Shown here piece by piece: positions 1,265-4,674 of a stretch of 4,674 bases of DNA (positions within the stretch are counted from its first letter, which is position 1; every line of letters begins with the position of its first letter). This DNA is from a virus (taxonomy: Duplodnaviria > Heunggongvirae > Uroviricota > Caudoviricetes), in IMG/VR virus record IMGVR_UViG_2744054872_000006, positions 1 to 4,674 of that record; one strand, written 5' to 3'. The translations under genes and the position numbers were made by a program. The notes below the pieces were generated by a model. It made no database searches and was not told where the DNA came from. It was given only the letters and a program-made list of their open reading frames with translations.

Positions 1265-1483
1265 TCAAAGTTCCGTATTAGCTTGTGCTTCGGTCATTTT
1301 TCCTAAGTATGAAGGTGGAAGGACTACGCAATTTGTATCCAGTCCCTCACCTATGGCAGCCTGTAAAATTCTGGCTAAGGTGAGTCTCTTGTTGCGATAC
1401 CTGGTGATGACATGCCTGATACCGCCGGTCGGCGTAACAAAGGCGATCAGCCAGTAGTGATATTTCCGTCGGAATGGCCACAT
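1265..1483 (-). CDS. Small hypothetical protein (72 aa), possibly co-translated with the downstream 420-aa protein
   Basis: ATG at 1483-1481 is preceded on the minus strand by AAGGTG (plus 1488-1493) with a 4-nt spacer. The TGA stop at 1267-1265 sits 1 nt from the ATG of the 420-aa gene. Co-directional with all other genes. Protein family not recognised. Confidence 0.45.
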   Translation of the reverse strand: MWPFRRKYHYWLIAFVTPTGGIRHVITRYRNKRLTLARILQAAIGEGLDTNCVVLPPSYLGKMTEAQANTEL

Positions 1484-1487
1484 AGTG

Positions 1488-1493
1488 CACCTT
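1488..1493 (-). promoter_or_regulatory. Shine-Dalgarno-like sequence (AAGGTG) for the 72-aa ORF
   Basis: The minus strand reads AAGGTGCACTATG, placing a purine-rich GGTG core 4-5 nt upstream of the ATG at 1483. Confidence 0.4.
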
Positions 1494-1506
1494 GTAGATT
1501 GCTCTG

Positions 1507-1534
1507 ATAAAAAACATGATGAGTGTACATCACG
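1507..1534 (-). terminator. Candidate intrinsic terminator or RNA hairpin between the glycosyltransferase-like gene and the 72-aa ORF
   Basis: The minus-strand RNA would read CGUGAUG-UACACU-CAUCAUG followed by UUUUUUAU: a 7-bp stem including one G:U pair, a 6-nt loop and a U6 tract. The stem is AU-rich and therefore weak. It lies in the only sizeable AT-rich intergenic gap (1484-1580). Confidence 0.3.
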
Positions 1535-1580
1535 TTTTAAAAATAATGAATTATTAGAGCAATATTATTCTGATTCTCGC

Positions 1581-2267
1581 TCAAAAAAATGAGCTGATAA
1601 GGGGAAGCCAATCCTCTGACACTTCGCGAGGTCGCGGTTTGCCGTGGAAAAAGATTATTCGGCAGTCTTTTGGTAATGCCCCATTCCCCCTGGAGTAACG
1701 CGCGCTCGCATATTTCGAACCAGGTTCCACAACATCGGCCTTGTAACTTACAAACCATCCCGGATACAGATCCTGAAATGCTGGTGTATCATCACCCATA
1801 ACCTTCCGCAAAAACCCCTGATCACCCCAGCATTCAGTAGTAACACAACGAGCAATCCAACCTTCCGGATCTTGCCAGAATGCACTCCAGATATGCGCTT
1901 TTACACTATTTGGTATCCACAGGGCACCGCTGCCACGATATTGTGGATGGTAAAAATCCCTAAGCATGGTGAAGCTGGTTGGTGGATTCTCTAGGATTGG
2001 GCGTATATCACCGGCAATAACCGTGTCCAAATCCAGATAGAACAGATCATCGGTTATATCCGGTCGGAACAACTCGATTTTCGCCCACCAGCCACGGCAC
2101 TTTTGCCACTGGTTGATCAATGGGACAACTTTGACGCCAGGTACATGTAAACGCTTCAGGTCTGTCAGGCAAATAATTTCATAGCCTTTTGGCAGTTGAT
2201 TAACCAGCCACTGCACATCGGAAGCGTTATAGTCACCACCAGAGCGAAGAACTAAAGCAATCTTCAT
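1581..2267 (-). CDS. Putative GT-A-fold glycosyltransferase (228 aa) with a DXD motif, GT8-like
   Basis: ATG at 2267-2265 overlaps the TGA of the upstream phosphatase gene (ATGA, 4-nt overlap), with GGTG 4 nt upstream. The protein has an N-terminal [12 protein letters not shown] strand, a [18 protein letters not shown] segment (YLDxDxxV...DI, like the DXD nucleotide-sugar/metal site of GT-A enzymes) and a C-terminal [10 protein letters not shown] resembling the HxxGxxKPW motif of GT8 enzymes. Assignment is by motif memory only. Confidence 0.6.
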
Positions 2268-2956
2268 GCTGCACCATCACCTTTCACTTTCATCAATGTC
2301 AGGTTTCCGCAAAATACGGCACCTGTGTCGATATAATGCTGATTCCAGAATGTCTTCGGGCTTTTCACCGGAGTGTGACCAAAGATAAAACGATCTGCGC
2401 CAGAAATTTCGCCACCAATATCATCCATCGAATCACTGATACGCTCGCGCGCCCAGACAACGTTGAAAAGCGGCACCTCCTTACCGAATTGATATTCATT
2501 ATCCGGATAGTCGGCATGGGCTATAACGATAGTTTCTTGCCCGGTGTTCAACTCAATGATATAGGGCAGTCGTCTTACCAACTCCACCAGCGCCCTGGCT
2601 AATATTTCCTGATCAGCGTCCAGCATGAAGAACCATTGACCGCCATTCATTAGCCAGTTATTCACGTTGCCATCTGGACTTAACGCATCAATCATCAGCC
2701 GCTCATGGTTCCCCATCACTGCCCTGAACCAGGGCATCTGCAATAGTTCCAGACATTCGACATTTTCAGTACCGCGATCGATAAGGTCGCCGACCGATAT
2801 CAGTAAATCCTGCGCCGGGTCAAAATCCACACGATGGAGTTCGGACATCAGTCTGGTGTAGCAACCATGCAGATCACCAACAACCCAGACATTCCTGTAT
2901 TTGGTACCGTCGATACGGTGATAAATTGTGGGTGCCATCATGTATTCTTCAGCCAT
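2264..2956 (-). CDS. Serine/threonine protein phosphatase, calcineurin-like metallophosphoesterase (lambda orf221/NinI-type)
   Basis: Contains the PPP-family motifs VVGDLHGCY (GDxHG), VGDLIDRG (GDxxDR) and GNHE, plus a downstream FGHTP. It aligns along its whole length with lambda phosphatase as I remember it ([56 protein letters not shown]). The true start may be the ATG at 2941 or 2938 rather than 2956: these would give ATGA or TGATG overlap with the upstream stop and an N-terminus matching lambda's length. Confidence 0.9.
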
Positions 2957-3564
2957 TCTTTAAGAGTCATCTGCGGAATACCTCCCATTTTCCCGCATGA
3001 AACAACGTCAATCTGTTCACGCGCAGACTGGAATAACAAAGGCAGGTGACTTAGATTTTTTGGCGTGCCGCCGGAGTGAACGCGTGGTTCTTGTGTAGCG
3101 TCAACGCCCACCAGGGCGACATGTTTGAATCCGATATGGAAAGCCAGGTTCAGAGCACCATATGCACTATTGCCGCTGGCAATTTCATTCTCATCTTCAC
3201 AAAGGCCGAAATGTGCGGACCAGCGCCACGCCCACCACTCGGGAGAATTCGTATTTTTTGGCTCCGTGCCGCGCTCAGCCACACGACGGAAGCACAGAAC
3301 GCCATCTCTGACTTCACGTTCTTTAACATCGGGTAGTGCCATGCAATAACAAACACCACGGCGACGGCGGCCACGACCAACGCGCCGCATATTGTCTGGC
3401 GATGGATCAAGGGTGAAAAAATAAGAAGCGCGGTTAAGCCAGTCGATGGCCCCATTGACCGCTATAATCGGCACTCCGCGCGGCGCAACAAAGTTTGCGG
3501 CGCTTGGGCCACTGCCGACGATAATAACGCGATCACTGCCTCTAAATTTATTCTTGGGAAACAT
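2938..3564 (-). CDS. GSGPS-motif Rossmann-like transferase, paralog B (208 aa); GT42 sialyltransferase-like / DUF115 (MptE/Maf-like) candidate
   Basis: ATG at 3564-3562 with AGGAG (plus 3577-3581) 12 nt upstream. Carries VIIVGSGPS near the N-terminus, then IIAVNG, then [26 protein letters not shown]. This pattern recalls Campylobacter Cst-II (AGNGPSL ... RCN ... TSGxxxxAxAxALGYKxIYLxGID). It is clearly paralogous to the adjacent upstream gene. Contains an arginine-rich insert, [16 protein letters not shown]. Confidence 0.7.
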
Positions 3565-4124
3565 TGAATTGCACTGCTCCTACTTGCATTCAAAATATGT
3601 AAATCTGCGTGTTTTTTGCGGGTATCCAGGAACTGCTGTTGCCATTTTGAAATAGACACCTGCGTTGGATTCCGTAGGGCTTGAGGGTGCGCGCCATGCC
3701 AATGAAGGCCGTTTTGCAGAGAACAGTCATAGCCGACTAATACCACTACTTCAGCCCCTGATTCAGCAGCCAGACTGATAGCCTGCGCGCCGCTATTTAC
3801 CCCTTCCGCCGGTCCACAATATCGCCTGTACTCCAACGAAAATGATTTCGCCGCCGCCAGGTTGGCTGTCACTTTGCGGAATCTCCCTCCCGGTATGGTG
3901 GATCCGTATTGCTTCCACCATGACAAATCACCGGCGTATAAGGCATAAATGTCATCGAACATCTGCCAGGAATTGTTAACCGCGATGATTGAACAGCCAG
4001 TTTTTTCTATAGCAGCACAGTCCTCACGAGTGAGTGACGGACCGCTACCGACACAAAAAACAGTCCTAGTCGCCCTGGGTGGTATGTTCATTCTCAGCTG
4101 CAAATTCAGCCTCCAGGCGAGCAT
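3462..4124 (-). CDS. GSGPS-motif Rossmann-like transferase, paralog A (220 aa); GT42 sialyltransferase-like / DUF115 (MptE/Maf-like) candidate
   Basis: Carries FCVGSGPSL, IIAVNN and NSGAQAISLAAESGAEVVVLVGYD motifs collinear with paralog B. The start is uncertain: the ATG at 4124 has no SD, and the internal ATG at 4091 (Met12) gives an N-terminus of similar length to paralog B. The 3' end overlaps paralog B by 103 nt in another frame. Confidence 0.7.
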   Translation of the reverse strand: MLAWRLNLQLRMNIPPRATRTVFCVGSGPSLTREDCAAIEKTGCSIIAVNNSWQMFDDIYALYAGDLSWWKQYGSTIPGGRFRKVTANLAAAKSFSLEYRRYCGPAEGVNSGAQAISLAAESGAEVVVLVGYDCSLQNGLHWHGAHPQALRNPTQVSISKWQQQFLDTRKKHADLHILNASRSSAIQCFPRINLEAVIALLSSAVAQAPQTLLRRAECRL

Positions 4125-4221
4125 TCATTTCAGCGATTACCGGGTCCACTACAGCATCTGCTTCCTGTTCATTACGCGGCATGATCGATGCCAGCGATTC
4201 ATAATTAGCCTTGAATGACAC
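4066..4221 (-). CDS. Candidate small acidic protein (51 aa from GTG at 4221, or 38 aa from ATG at 4182), not in the supplied ORF track
   Basis: Hand translation of the minus strand gives VSFKANYESLASIMPRNEQEADAVVDPVIAEMNARLEAEFAAENEHTTQGD, ending at TAG 4068-4066. GGGAG (plus 4229-4233) lies 7 nt upstream of the GTG at 4221-4219. The ORF fills the otherwise empty gap between the VRR-NUC gene and paralog A, and overlaps the annotated 5' end of paralog A. Confidence 0.25.
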   Translation of the reverse strand: MSFKANYESLASIMPRNEQEADAVVDPVIAEMNARLEAEFAAENEHTTQGD

Positions 4222-4240
4222 GATTATTCTCCCGATGTTA

Positions 4241-4267
4241 ATGTGCGCTATATCAAAGAGCGCATAT
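4241..4267. promoter_or_regulatory. Imperfect inverted repeat (ATGTGCGC-N11-GCGCATAT) just downstream of the VRR-NUC stop; possible operator or RNA hairpin
   Basis: 8-bp arms with one mismatch and an 11-nt TATAT-containing spacer, seen directly in the sequence. Not followed by a clean U-tract on the minus strand, so not a canonical terminator. Confidence 0.2.
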
Positions 4268-4287
4268 GCACTAATTAATTTATTATT

Positions 4288-4674
4288 TTAAGCAGCATAC
4301 AACCACTTGTCGCCGTTCAATACATGCTCAATAGCCTCACCCTTTTTAAGGCTTATGTATTCCAGGATGGCGGTTATCGCTTGTTCTGCACCATACGCAA
4401 GAACGACGTAGTAACCTTCCTCTCTAAGCCTGCGCATCCAGGCGATCTGCTCTTTCGTCGGGGCTTTACCATTTGGTTCTTTAAGCTCAATTCGCATGCC
4501 GTGATAAATACCGCATGCTTTATCGAGACTCATGTCCGGATAACCTTTTTTCTGCCCTTCAGCCTTCATTTTCCCGGCGGTTGCTTTTGAACGTTTCCCT
4601 GGCTTTGTTGAATAAATCGAACTTTTGCTGAGTTGAAGGATCAGATCACGCATCCTCCCGACAACACAGACCAT
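4288..4674 (-). CDS. VRR-NUC domain protein (PD-(D/E)xK-type nuclease, 128 aa)
   Basis: The segment GYPDMSL...GMRIELKEPNGKAPTKEQIAWMRRLREEGYYVVLAYGAEQA matches the VRR-NUC pattern: a PD motif, then E-x-K, then a Q-containing helix and a hydrophobic strand. TAA stop at 4290-4288. The ATG is the last 3 nt of the window, so the start cannot be checked against upstream sequence. Confidence 0.75.
   Translation of the reverse strand: MVCVVGRMRDLILQLSKSSIYSTKPGKRSKATAGKMKAEGQKKGYPDMSLDKACGIYHGMRIELKEPNGKAPTKEQIAWMRRLREEGYYVVLAYGAEQAITAILEYISLKKGEAIEHVLNGDKWLYAA

Follow-up and report, generated by a model that had tools for sequence, protein, structure and literature searches.

Bacteriophage P1 is a standard phage for transduction and engineering, and about 10% of the complete genomes of E. 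coli carry P1-like resistance plasmids. One of its short genes, pmgN, named hdmA in phage P7, follows the C1 operator (Oppp/Op83) as the first cistron and heads a block of genes ordered pmgN-pmgO-pmgP-ppp-pmgQ. The features of this gene can be compared with those of several groups of described systems. Overlapping cistrons in which the ribosome-binding site of the downstream gene lies within the upstream coding sequence are translationally coupled in trpE-trpD and galT-galK of E. coli and in the coat-lysis and coat-replicase pairs of RNA phages. Small acidic inhibitors encoded by phages include DNA mimics of the Ocr/ArdA type and host inhibitors of the T7 Gp2 or Gp0.4 type. Finally, Tad2-like anti-Thoeris proteins (PF11195) are encoded in the same slot as pmgN, after pmgM and before pmgR/pmgS, in other P1-like phage-plasmids.

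The window analysed here (the whole stretch of DNA, 4,674 nt in length) contains a short open reading frame that agrees one-to-one in its coordinates with P1 pmgN and P7 hdmA and shares with them the GTG start, an overlap of 59 nt with pmgO as annotated and a C1 operator located upstream, the differences being that pmgM is truncated by IS5 in this element and that the product differs from that of P1 in a few amino acids. The finding is therefore a rediscovery of an annotated gene; comparative evidence is now solid for a gene that annotation pipelines call or drop inconsistently. We consider it very likely that this frame is pmgN (hdmA), a genuine gene of P1-type phage-plasmids, which would be controlled by C1, would harbour the TTG start of pmgO and would encode a protein acting in trans.

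Identity and regulatory surroundings of the frame

The features of the locus, in the order in which they would be transcribed, are as follows:

4288..4599, minus strand: 3' part of pmgM (VRR-NUC nuclease gene), the upstream neighbour, 5'-truncated by an IS5 insertion in this element
4285..4320, minus strand: predicted sigma-70 promoter region of the pmgN-ppp operon (P1 annotation and consensus scan; prediction only)
4265..4281, plus strand: C1 repressor operator closely preceding pmgN; in P1 it is named Oppp (at one time Op83) and has the coordinates 79435..79451
4243..4263, minus strand: part of the 5' leader that is hypervariable and prone to form hairpins, with the operator on one side and the pmgN Shine-Dalgarno (SD) sequence on the other
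4230..4234, minus strand: pmgN SD, GGGAG, 7 nt before the GTG; -7.4 kcal/mol
4066..4221, minus strand: pmgN coding sequence, GTG 4221-4219, TAG 4068-4066, 51 codons, 51 aa, net charge -8
3462..4103, minus strand: pmgO (MptE-like or 'sialyltransferase-like'), the second cistron, its 3' end overlapping pmgP by 103 nt

The preliminary description of this DNA had presented the frame as unlisted, which is not the case, as it has been annotated as pmgN or hdmA since the P1 and P7 genome annotations. In P1 it is pmgN (P1_gp087, YP_006553.1; NC_005856, 79495..79650), in P7 it is hdmA, and in a RefSeq plasmid 100% identical to the 501 nt searched (window 3900-4400) it is WP_001567997.1. About half of the sampled RefSeq records list just one hypothetical protein under the pmgN region. 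The product matches PHROG 2350 over its full length (residues 1-51, E 3.2e-37) and is 90-98% identical to P1 PmgN and P7 HdmA (90% at the amino acid level to P1), the substitutions relative to P1 being F3S, A5V, I13V and A21T; its expected tryptic peptides include ANYESLASIMPR, NEQEADAVVDPVIAEMNAR and LEAEFAAENEHTTQGD. Its position is also that of the PmgN/HdmA family, namely between pmgM and pmgO, the 5' end of which it overlaps, with the Oppp/Op83 operator directly upstream, a sequence match with one mismatch to P1. In RefSeq pmgM carries the remark 'incomplete, missing N-terminus', and an IS5 transposase lies next to it.

All that had been said of the frame itself was confirmed in the sequence. 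It encodes a 51-residue acidic peptide (computed pI 4.2) and is open upstream as far as the pmgM stop codon (TAA 4290-4288), and therefore lies in the frame of the VRR-NUC gene; the gap from that stop to ATG 4124, the annotated start of the gene that had been called paralog A and is pmgO, is 163 nt, and pmgN runs 59 nt past this ATG. The peptide is, as supposed, predicted to be mostly helical (AlphaFold2, residues 7-13 and 18-50, mean pLDDT 77). An Asp-Pro/Gly conserved in the middle of PmgN may interrupt the long helix in this model, the alignment underlying which is shallow. An amphipathic helix or coiled coil was considered and rejected, the hydrophobic moment of the core being no higher than that of shuffled sequence.

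The mRNA before the start reads CGGGAGAAUAAUC-GUG, that is, the strong GGGAG-N7-GTG site originally reported, and its predicted duplex with the anti-SD is among about the best 4-7% of 20-mers in the window. GGGAG is unchanged in 84 loci of the P1 clade, and in diverged relatives AGGGGA or GAGGGA occupies the same place; each diverged homologue has a purine-rich SD of its own. Further upstream, an operator-like TTTATTAGA core is retained in the diverged loci bearing PmgN. The hexamers of the P1-annotated PpmgN promoter correspond to TTGAAC (4320-4315) and TATGCT (4299-4294), and an alternative pair, GCGACA ... TAAAAT, lies at 4313-4285; in the sigma-70 consensus scan such sites were no more numerous than in shuffled sequence. 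Under this arrangement the operon would be silent in the lysogen and would be switched on once C1 is inactivated.

A 37-nt stretch of the leader occurs in 28 variants among the 84 loci, nearly all of them foldable, and in relatives unrelated GC-rich hairpins take the same position. The possibility that the region is an RNA element instead of a gene was rejected, as nothing relevant was found in Rfam at E <= 1 and the 241-nt leader with the frame folds no better than its shuffles (z = +0.75).

Conservation and selection on pmgN

The test proposed in the preliminary description, conservation of the frame in relatives, with its synonymous and nonsynonymous changes, gave a clearly positive result. 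At least 80% of PmgN is covered in 561 of the 573 plasmids having a tblastn match, and the 84 pmgN loci on viral contigs contain zero frameshifts and zero internal stops, with one variant starting with ATG instead of GTG. More diverged homologues, 37-53% identical, occupy the same slot in P1-like elements of Salmonella, Klebsiella and Cronobacter, and the gene is conserved across at least five enterobacterial genera with its DNA diverged (dS > 1). Over the 40 codons that do not overlap pmgO, pN/pS is 0.25 in the pmgN frame, the remaining two sense frames giving 1.0 and 2.5, the variable columns are distributed 14/7/26 over the three codon positions, and the most diverged pair gives a Fisher p of 3e-7. 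A synonymous excess specific to this frame, with no disruptions in relatives, is what distinguishes a coding gene from a chance open frame, and judged from these comparisons pmgN is a genuine protein-coding gene, translated in appearance, whose amino acid sequence is under purifying selection.

The part of the sequence conserved across genera upstream of the overlap, where synonymous sites are near saturation, reads (I/V)MP(R/T)N.xEI(D/E).HVDG..EM..R. The N-terminal 19 codons taken alone have a pN/pS of 0.30, which supports the upstream GTG as the start. An internal ATG (Met14, 4182) was rejected as an alternative, since it is without an SD (-1.5 kcal/mol) and since in the JK004-like clade purifying selection acts on the 19 codons that it would exclude. 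Within the P1 clade constraint on the N-terminal 27 codons is weak, as they contain 7 nonsynonymous versus 4 synonymous polymorphic sites. All homologues have a net charge of -7 to -11, and length, acidity and helical prediction are kept as well. The conservation of residues 36-41 is confounded with that of the embedded pmgO ribosome-binding site.

Antisense frames over pmgN have pN/pS values of 0.37-2.1 and contain stops in all cases. An antisense frame at 3949-4218 (plus strand), open in three relatives, was rejected as a gene because in other relatives the antisense frames carry stops, and 0.37 is the usual mirror of constraint on the sense strand.

In an exhaustive profile search the PmgN family was confined to P1-like elements. 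The HMMER search of 1.84 billion representatives gave 10 hits with E < 1e-3, of which the small ones were all PmgN-like and a 1555-aa repeat protein was considered spurious. Evidence for the PmgN protein from mass spectrometry or ribosome profiling was not found in the literature searched.

The probable start of pmgO within pmgN

Four features of the 3' part of pmgN bear on where its neighbour begins:

4122..4124, minus strand: ATG, the P1-annotated pmgO start, SD absent or weak (-3.0 kcal/mol), position not conserved in relatives
4110..4114, minus strand: pmgO SD, GGAGG, in pmgN codons Leu36-Glu37-Ala38; -9.3 kcal/mol
4101..4103, minus strand: TTG, the probable true pmgO start, in the +1 frame relative to pmgN, with GGAGG 6 nt upstream
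4089..4091, minus strand: alternative in-frame pmgO ATG, 23 nt before the pmgN stop, with no usable SD (-2.7 kcal/mol), a possible re-initiation start

It had been proposed that neither ATG has an SD and that pmgO may for this reason rely on coupling to the small frame. The first part stands, pairing being weak at both ATGs; what had been overlooked is TTG 4103 with its GGAGG-N6, given which pmgO need not rely on coupling. This GGAGG is in the best 1.3% of 20-mers and is the strongest SD in the operon. Starting from TTG 4103, pmgO would encode a 213-aa PmgO and would overlap pmgN by 38 nt. All 8 sequences compared, from the window, P1 and six diverged relatives, have the arrangement GGAG[GA]-N6-TTG, and in four of the loci (L003, L090, L092 and L093) the TTG is the sole in-frame start available for pmgO, which together indicate that pmgO probably has its own ribosome-binding site inside the codons of pmgN. 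The SD is invariant within the P1 clade, the Leu codon at the TTG site is always CTT, by which the TTG is preserved, and wherever both elements are kept GAG is used and not GAA, and CTT and not other Leu codons. Two loci (L094/L099) have lost the embedded SD as well as the TTG, and there the role passes to an ATG 17 nt upstream of the pmgN stop; ATGs near that stop, at varying positions, are also present in L004, L091 and L095. The overlap of pmgN and pmgO ranges from 17 to 41 nt across all relatives. In predicted folds TTG 4103 is mostly base-paired (unpaired probability 0.01-0.42), and the local RNA around pmgN/pmgO shows no excess of structure over its shuffles (z = +0.75).

It is thus probable, on the basis of sequence conservation, that pmgO starts at TTG 4103 rather than at the annotated ATG 4124 and that its start is probably misannotated everywhere, the conserved GGAGG-N6-TTG inside pmgN constituting a testable correction. 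Existing annotations of this start differ among themselves, with GenBank using ATG 4124, RefSeq PGAP cutting pmgO back to Met55, and the gene being left out in JK004 and by metagenome gene callers.

With regard to coupled cistrons, the likeness is in position, since the start of the downstream gene lies inside the end of the upstream frame: the pmgO SD and start are within the last 38-50 nt of pmgN, in a geometry conserved in relatives, although the overlap exceeds the usual 1-4 nt. If pmgO starts at TTG 4103, all ribosomes translating pmgN would cross its initiation site and terminate 35 nt further on, which would tie PmgO synthesis to pmgN translation. Coupling or occlusion of pmgO by these ribosomes is plausible from the arrangement, though not required, and because of its very strong SD pmgO may not depend on an upstream ribosome.

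A PmgN-PmgO fusion by frameshifting was also considered, as four database proteins (P0024, P0025, P0029 and P0043) switch from pmgN to the pmgO frame. They are singletons or rare clusters from short contigs with further frame changes, no slippery site was seen, and they were treated as assembly errors.

Possible roles of PmgN

According to the reading we prefer, PmgN would act in trans as a small protein-binding module, regulating or inhibiting some protein of the host or of the phage, and would have a role other than that of a virion part. That pmgN is labelled 'putative morphogenetic function' or 'head morphogenesis' goes back to positional guesses without support, and the paper on the virion proteome of P1 does not mention PmgN in its main text, where virion proteins are discussed. 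Searches of Pfam, NCBIfam and PADLOC returned no family match, a profile search against the PDB gave only noise at E >= 0.05, and Foldseek, also run against the PDB, gave 0 hits.

The slot between pmgM and pmgR/pmgS holds variable cargo among P1-like elements, as seen in six sampled contexts. P1-like elements of Atlantibacter and Yersinia encode Tad2-like (Thoeris anti-defence) proteins there, above the Pfam cut-off, an Enterobacter element encodes an 80-aa acidic protein (charge -10) with a sub-threshold Tad2-like match, and a Citrobacter element has a 77-aa protein (charge -8) directly after pmgM. In four P1-like lineages (L100, L101, L103 and L104) PmgN is absent, as are pmgO-pmgQ, with pmgM kept. 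Unlike the Tad2-like proteins, PmgN has zero Pfam matches, and in a profile comparison it resembled none of the other proteins encoded in this slot. An obligate partnership of PmgN with MptE-like enzymes was rejected, as pmgO occurs without PmgN in a Pantoea prophage (a homologue of 40% identity) and in the Citrobacter P1-like element.

Published phenotypes of pmgN conflict: deletion in P1 caused no plaque defect and left anti-restriction unchanged on laboratory E. coli, versus a CRISPRi knockdown that lowered P1 plating (EOP) about 70-fold. The deletion allele is partial and in-frame, removing codons 2 to about 26 and retaining the last 25 codons, and the disagreement may stem from this design.

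That PmgN is a counter-defence or host-takeover inhibitor, acting as an acidic decoy or DNA mimic, appears unlikely, although such a role is conceivable because the same slot holds Tad2-like anti-defence genes elsewhere. Like the Ocr/ArdA proteins and the T7 Gp2 and Gp0.4 inhibitors, PmgN is small and highly negative, in all its homologues, and would be expressed early, to judge from its position behind a C1-repressed promoter, and the CRISPRi result points in the same direction. Its charge is as dense as expected of a DNA mimic, but it has no sequence or fold similarity to these proteins, to any known anti-defence protein or PADLOC entry, or to any PDB chain, and at 51 aa, mainly a single predicted helix and not a DNA-shaped surface, it is small for a mimic. 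The partial deletion was without an anti-restriction or plaque phenotype on laboratory E. coli, and the argument from the hotspot is guilt by association from the six contexts sampled.

A broader version, in which PmgN serves in trans for counter-defence or host takeover and heads the accessory module pmgN-pmgO-pmgP-ppp-pmgQ in a counter-defence hotspot and the 70-fold CRISPRi defect is real, we regard as quite unlikely; under it the deletion would have missed the defect because the conserved C-terminal 25 residues and the pmgO ribosome-binding site are still present in the allele.

A similarly low probability is assigned to pmgN being an upstream frame acting only in cis, translation of which would open or occlude the pmgO ribosome-binding site, the peptide having no function. 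This would fit with the pmgO SD and start lying inside pmgN, with an overlap being kept in all relatives, with the variable N-terminal part in the P1 clade, and with the normal phenotype of an allele that lacks codons 2 to about 26 and preserves translation of the 3' end. It is disfavoured because a purely cis-acting frame would not show such constraint on its amino acid sequence, which before the overlap is conserved across genera with synonymous sites near saturation, and PmgN length, acidity and helical prediction are also kept.

Genes for small acidic immunity-type proteins often adjoin nuclease genes, and PmgN could in principle partner or inhibit PmgM, the VRR-NUC nuclease encoded next to it, given that pmgN always directly follows pmgM without a strong terminator intervening and that unrelated small acidic proteins follow pmgM in the Enterobacter and Citrobacter elements. 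This is, however, very unlikely: the four lineages mentioned above keep pmgM without PmgN, pmgM is truncated by IS5 and pmgN is intact in the plasmid that is 100% identical over the 501 nt searched, the C1 operator and promoter stand between the two genes, and the acidic protein of Enterobacter looks Tad2-like and not nuclease-related.

The last reading, that of an untranslated chance frame in the 5' leader of the ppp operon, could draw on the shortness of the frame, its GTG start and its omission from some annotations (including about half of the sampled RefSeq records), yet it is effectively refuted by the comparative data, which point to frame-specific selection in at least five enterobacterial genera at dS > 1, a conserved SD and hundreds of undisrupted copies, and leave it a negligible probability.

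Identity of the ORF and its surroundings

The ORF at 4066-4221 on the minus strand, which the preliminary description took to be unlisted, is the already annotated gene pmgN of phage P1 (79495..79650), hdmA in P7, and appears as WP_001567997.1 in a RefSeq plasmid that is 100% identical over window 3900-4400. As a discovery it is ordinary. The by-products of the analysis are a comparative proof that pmgN is coding, a pmgO start that probably needs re-annotating, the recognition that a neighbouring slot is a hotspot for cargo, Tad2-like genes included, and a partial deletion allele as a possible reason why pmgN deletion and CRISPRi disagree. On re-reading of the sequence the start, SD, stop, length, frame and overlap first reported were all exact: a GTG at 4221, a TAG at 4066-4068 and 51 codons, with a GGGAG SD 7 nt 5' of the GTG (anti-SD duplex -7.4 kcal/mol), the frame of pmgM as far back as the pmgM TAA stop, and a 59-nt overlap with the form of pmgO starting at ATG 4124. 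The product is acidic, as had been claimed (pI 4.2, net charge about -8).

The minus strand carries every long ORF of the window. Paralog A of the preliminary description corresponds to pmgO and paralog B to pmgP, and the gene order was taken from mapping onto the P1 reference NC_005856 / AF234172:

4288-4674, minus, pmgM (VRR-NUC), 5'-truncated in the window
4066-4221, minus, pmgN
3462-4124 as annotated, minus, pmgO
2938-3564, minus, pmgP
2264-2956, minus, ppp
1581-2267, minus, pmgQ
1265-1483, minus, pmgR
1-1263, minus, pmgS

The 501-nt stretch at 3900-4400 has matches of 95-100% identity in 563 of 5,426 complete E. coli genomes, nearly all on plasmids of ~90-100 kb, and is also matched by phages P1, P7, RCS47, SJ46 and their relatives. 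In one plasmid 100% identical over this searched part, pTetA_020022, pmgM is reduced to a pseudogene that lacks its 5' end and lies directly against an IS5 transposase, beyond which comes a DMSO-reductase cluster (window ~4600-4674); this implies that the window's 128-aa VRR-NUC ORF begins in IS-derived sequence and is severed from its own promoters. The window has an intact pmgR gene (1265-1483, 72 aa), reported as essential to completing the P1 head; the matching RefSeq record leaves pmgR unannotated and flags pmgQ (1581-2267) as frameshifted (228 aa in the window vs 233 in P1).

The P1 annotation places two features in the gap 5' of pmgN, a predicted sigma-70 promoter and the C1 repressor operator Oppp, once called Op83; the putative Oppp counterpart in the window lies at 4265-4281 and differs from that of P1 by one base. 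Window 4242-4312, comprising the leader from the C1 operator to the pmgN SD and the last ~20 nt of pmgM, is hypervariable among P1-clade elements that are otherwise 96-100% identical, one 37-nt stretch having 28 variants in 84 loci. A hairpin is predicted to be possible in nearly all variants, and also in the unrelated sequences found there in distant relatives.

Conservation of pmgN and selection on its frame

The preliminary description proposed checking the ORF by tblastn and by synonymous versus nonsynonymous change, and named stops or frameshifts in relatives as grounds against it; both checks came out in its favour. At least 80% of the length of PmgN was covered in 561 of the 573 plasmids with a tblastn match, and neither frameshifts nor internal stops were found in 84 IMG/VR loci (46 distinct sequences), where the SD is invariant and the GTG becomes ATG in one variant. 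Members of the P1 clade show fairly free variation over the N-terminal 27 codons (7 nonsynonymous vs 4 synonymous sites), and 4066-4140 is nearly invariant. Distant homologues, 37-53% identical and obtained by tblastn and profile search from a Salmonella arizonae plasmid, Cronobacter phage JK004, and Klebsiella and other ~90-kb contigs, are each flanked by pmgM and pmgO homologues and each have their own purine-rich SD (AGGGGA or GAGGGA) followed by an ATG. The shared core is (I/V)MP(R/T)N-x-x-E-I-(D/E)-x-H-V-D-G-x-x-x-E-M-x-R-R-L-E-x-E-(F/L)-A-E-E.

Selection was measured on the 40 codons 5' of the pmgO overlap in six sequences of the JK004-like clade. The pN/pS ratio was 0.25 in the pmgN frame, against 1.0 and 2.5 in the other two sense frames and 0.37-2.1 in the antisense frames, and the pmgN frame was the only stop-free frame of the six. 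Variable columns at codon positions 1/2/3 numbered 14/7/26, and in the most diverged pair 16 of 26 synonymous sites had changed vs 10 of 94 nonsynonymous ones (Fisher p = 3e-7). A chance ORF is effectively excluded by this frame-specific selection and by the frame being kept in relatives, and ORF 4066-4221 is a genuine gene conserved among relatives. Taken by themselves, the first 19 codons gave a pN/pS of 0.30, which indicates that the upstream start, and not the conserved internal Met14, is the real one.

A probable pmgO start inside pmgN

It had been suggested that pmgO lacks an SD and may rely on coupling to the small ORF. The first statement holds for ATG 4124 (-3.0 kcal/mol) and ATG 4091 (-2.7 kcal/mol) but not for a third candidate, and the coupling argument needs amending to allow for an SD within pmgN that is both strong and conserved, followed by a probable TTG start:

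4114-4110, minus, pmgO SD GGAGG, inside pmgN
4103-4101, minus, candidate pmgO start TTG, in the pmgO frame, inside pmgN

No other SD of the operon reaches the -9.3 kcal/mol of this GGAGG, which falls within the top 1.3% of all 20-mers of the window. In aligned diverged loci the pmgN codons Leu-Glu-(Ala/Asp/Lys)-Glu-(Phe/Leu)-Ala read CTGGAG[G/A]-N6-TTG, with the TTG in the pmgO frame, a pattern present in 8/8 sequences of the first set, made up of the window, P1 and six diverged relatives. In four of these eight (L003, L090, L092, L093) the TTG is the sole start codon before the conserved PmgO domain (T-V-F-C-V-A/G-S-G-P-S). Synonymous codon choice in pmgN maintains the pmgO SD/TTG site: Glu37 is encoded by GAG in every sequence that retains the SD, and where residue 40 is Leu its codon is invariably CTT, so that the TTG is preserved. 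Neither the position of ATG 4124, the start annotated in P1, nor the first 20 residues that it adds to PmgO are conserved.

Two more distant members depart from the pattern: in L095 the SD is weakened and an ATG lies 20 nt before the pmgN stop, and in L094/L099 both the SD and the TTG have been lost, an ATG 17 nt before that stop being used instead. Taken together with the TTG sites, these ATGs would place pmgO initiation within the last 17-41 nt of pmgN in every lineage, and the start of pmgO probably needs to be re-annotated to TTG 4103. Ribosomes on pmgN would cross the pmgO initiation site and then stop just past its end, and coupling or interference between the translation of the two genes may reasonably be expected. 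Predicted folds mostly place the TTG in base pairs, but the region as a whole shows no unusual degree of structure.

The annotation of pmgO (window 3462-4124) is inconsistent: GenBank P1 uses ATG 4124, RefSeq PGAP (NZ_CP032890) starts at Met55 (window 3962), losing the conserved GSGPS N-terminal motif, and the gene is uncalled in the JK004 record and by metagenome gene callers despite an intact ORF of 202-212 aa. Its overlap with pmgP, in a different frame, is unusually long and conserved as such (103 nt, window 3462-3564; 70 nt in Salmonella and JK004 relatives), and gene finders probably fail on pmgO owing to its double overlap, with pmgN and with pmgP. For ppp, the P1 annotation starts at ATG 2956, which is without an SD (-0.9 kcal/mol; window 2938-2956), and RefSeq uses ATG 2941, overlapping the pmgP stop; this start may also need revision.

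Published experiments, the PmgN protein and the variable slot

None of the papers searched assigns a function to pmgN-pmgQ. A study of the P1 virion proteome and knockouts lists an in-frame deletion of pmgN among those made, and reports non-essential knockouts without plaque defect and with anti-restriction unchanged. In a genome-wide dCas12a CRISPRi screen, pmgN was the only gene of the cluster whose knockdown hurt P1 (EOP 0.014, ~70-fold lower plating, with pin-point plaques, in two replicates), a contradiction that the CRISPRi authors themselves flag; knockdown of pmgM gave tiny plaques. Simple polarity fails to explain the pmgN result, since P1 was unaffected by CRISPRi on pmgO, pmgP, ppp or pmgQ. 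The defect may possibly reflect a real requirement masked in a partial deletion: by the primer table of the knockout study the deletion begins at the GTG and ends near codon 26. The allele thus retains 25 codons at the 3' end, where the helix is best conserved and the pmgO RBS is embedded. It is also possible that the defect is a guide-specific artefact.

AlphaFold2, run with a 13-sequence alignment, predicts a short helix at residues 7-13 and a long one at 18-50, with pLDDT >90 at residues 21-40; a conserved Asp-Pro/Gly lies mid-way along the long helix, which is not significantly amphipathic. PmgN gave no match in Pfam, NCBIfam, PADLOC, PDB sequence profiles or Foldseek, and when 1.84 billion representative proteins were searched exhaustively with a profile, the family turned up only in P1-like elements.

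The slot from pmgM to pmgR/pmgS (window 1265-4287) holds variable cargo among P1-like phage-plasmids (loci L099-L104).

Content of the slot between pmgM and pmgR/pmgS
P1, P7 and JK004 types: pmgN-pmgO-pmgP-ppp-pmgQ
Atlantibacter (L103) and Yersinia ruckeri (L104): Tad2-like (PF11195, Thoeris anti-defence) proteins, above the Pfam cut-off
Enterobacter (L100): 80-aa acidic protein with a near-threshold Tad2-like match, and a small membrane protein
Serratia (L101): weak DUF4406-like protein
Citrobacter element: an unrelated acidic protein of 77 aa, upstream of the element's pmgO

Four P1-like lineages that have pmgM and are without pmgO-pmgQ are also without PmgN, and by this comparison PmgN appears to travel with the pmgO-pmgQ block and not with pmgM. 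The slot has the look of a hotspot for accessory or counter-defence genes, and such a location would keep alive, by association alone, the earlier idea that PmgN is an inhibitor.
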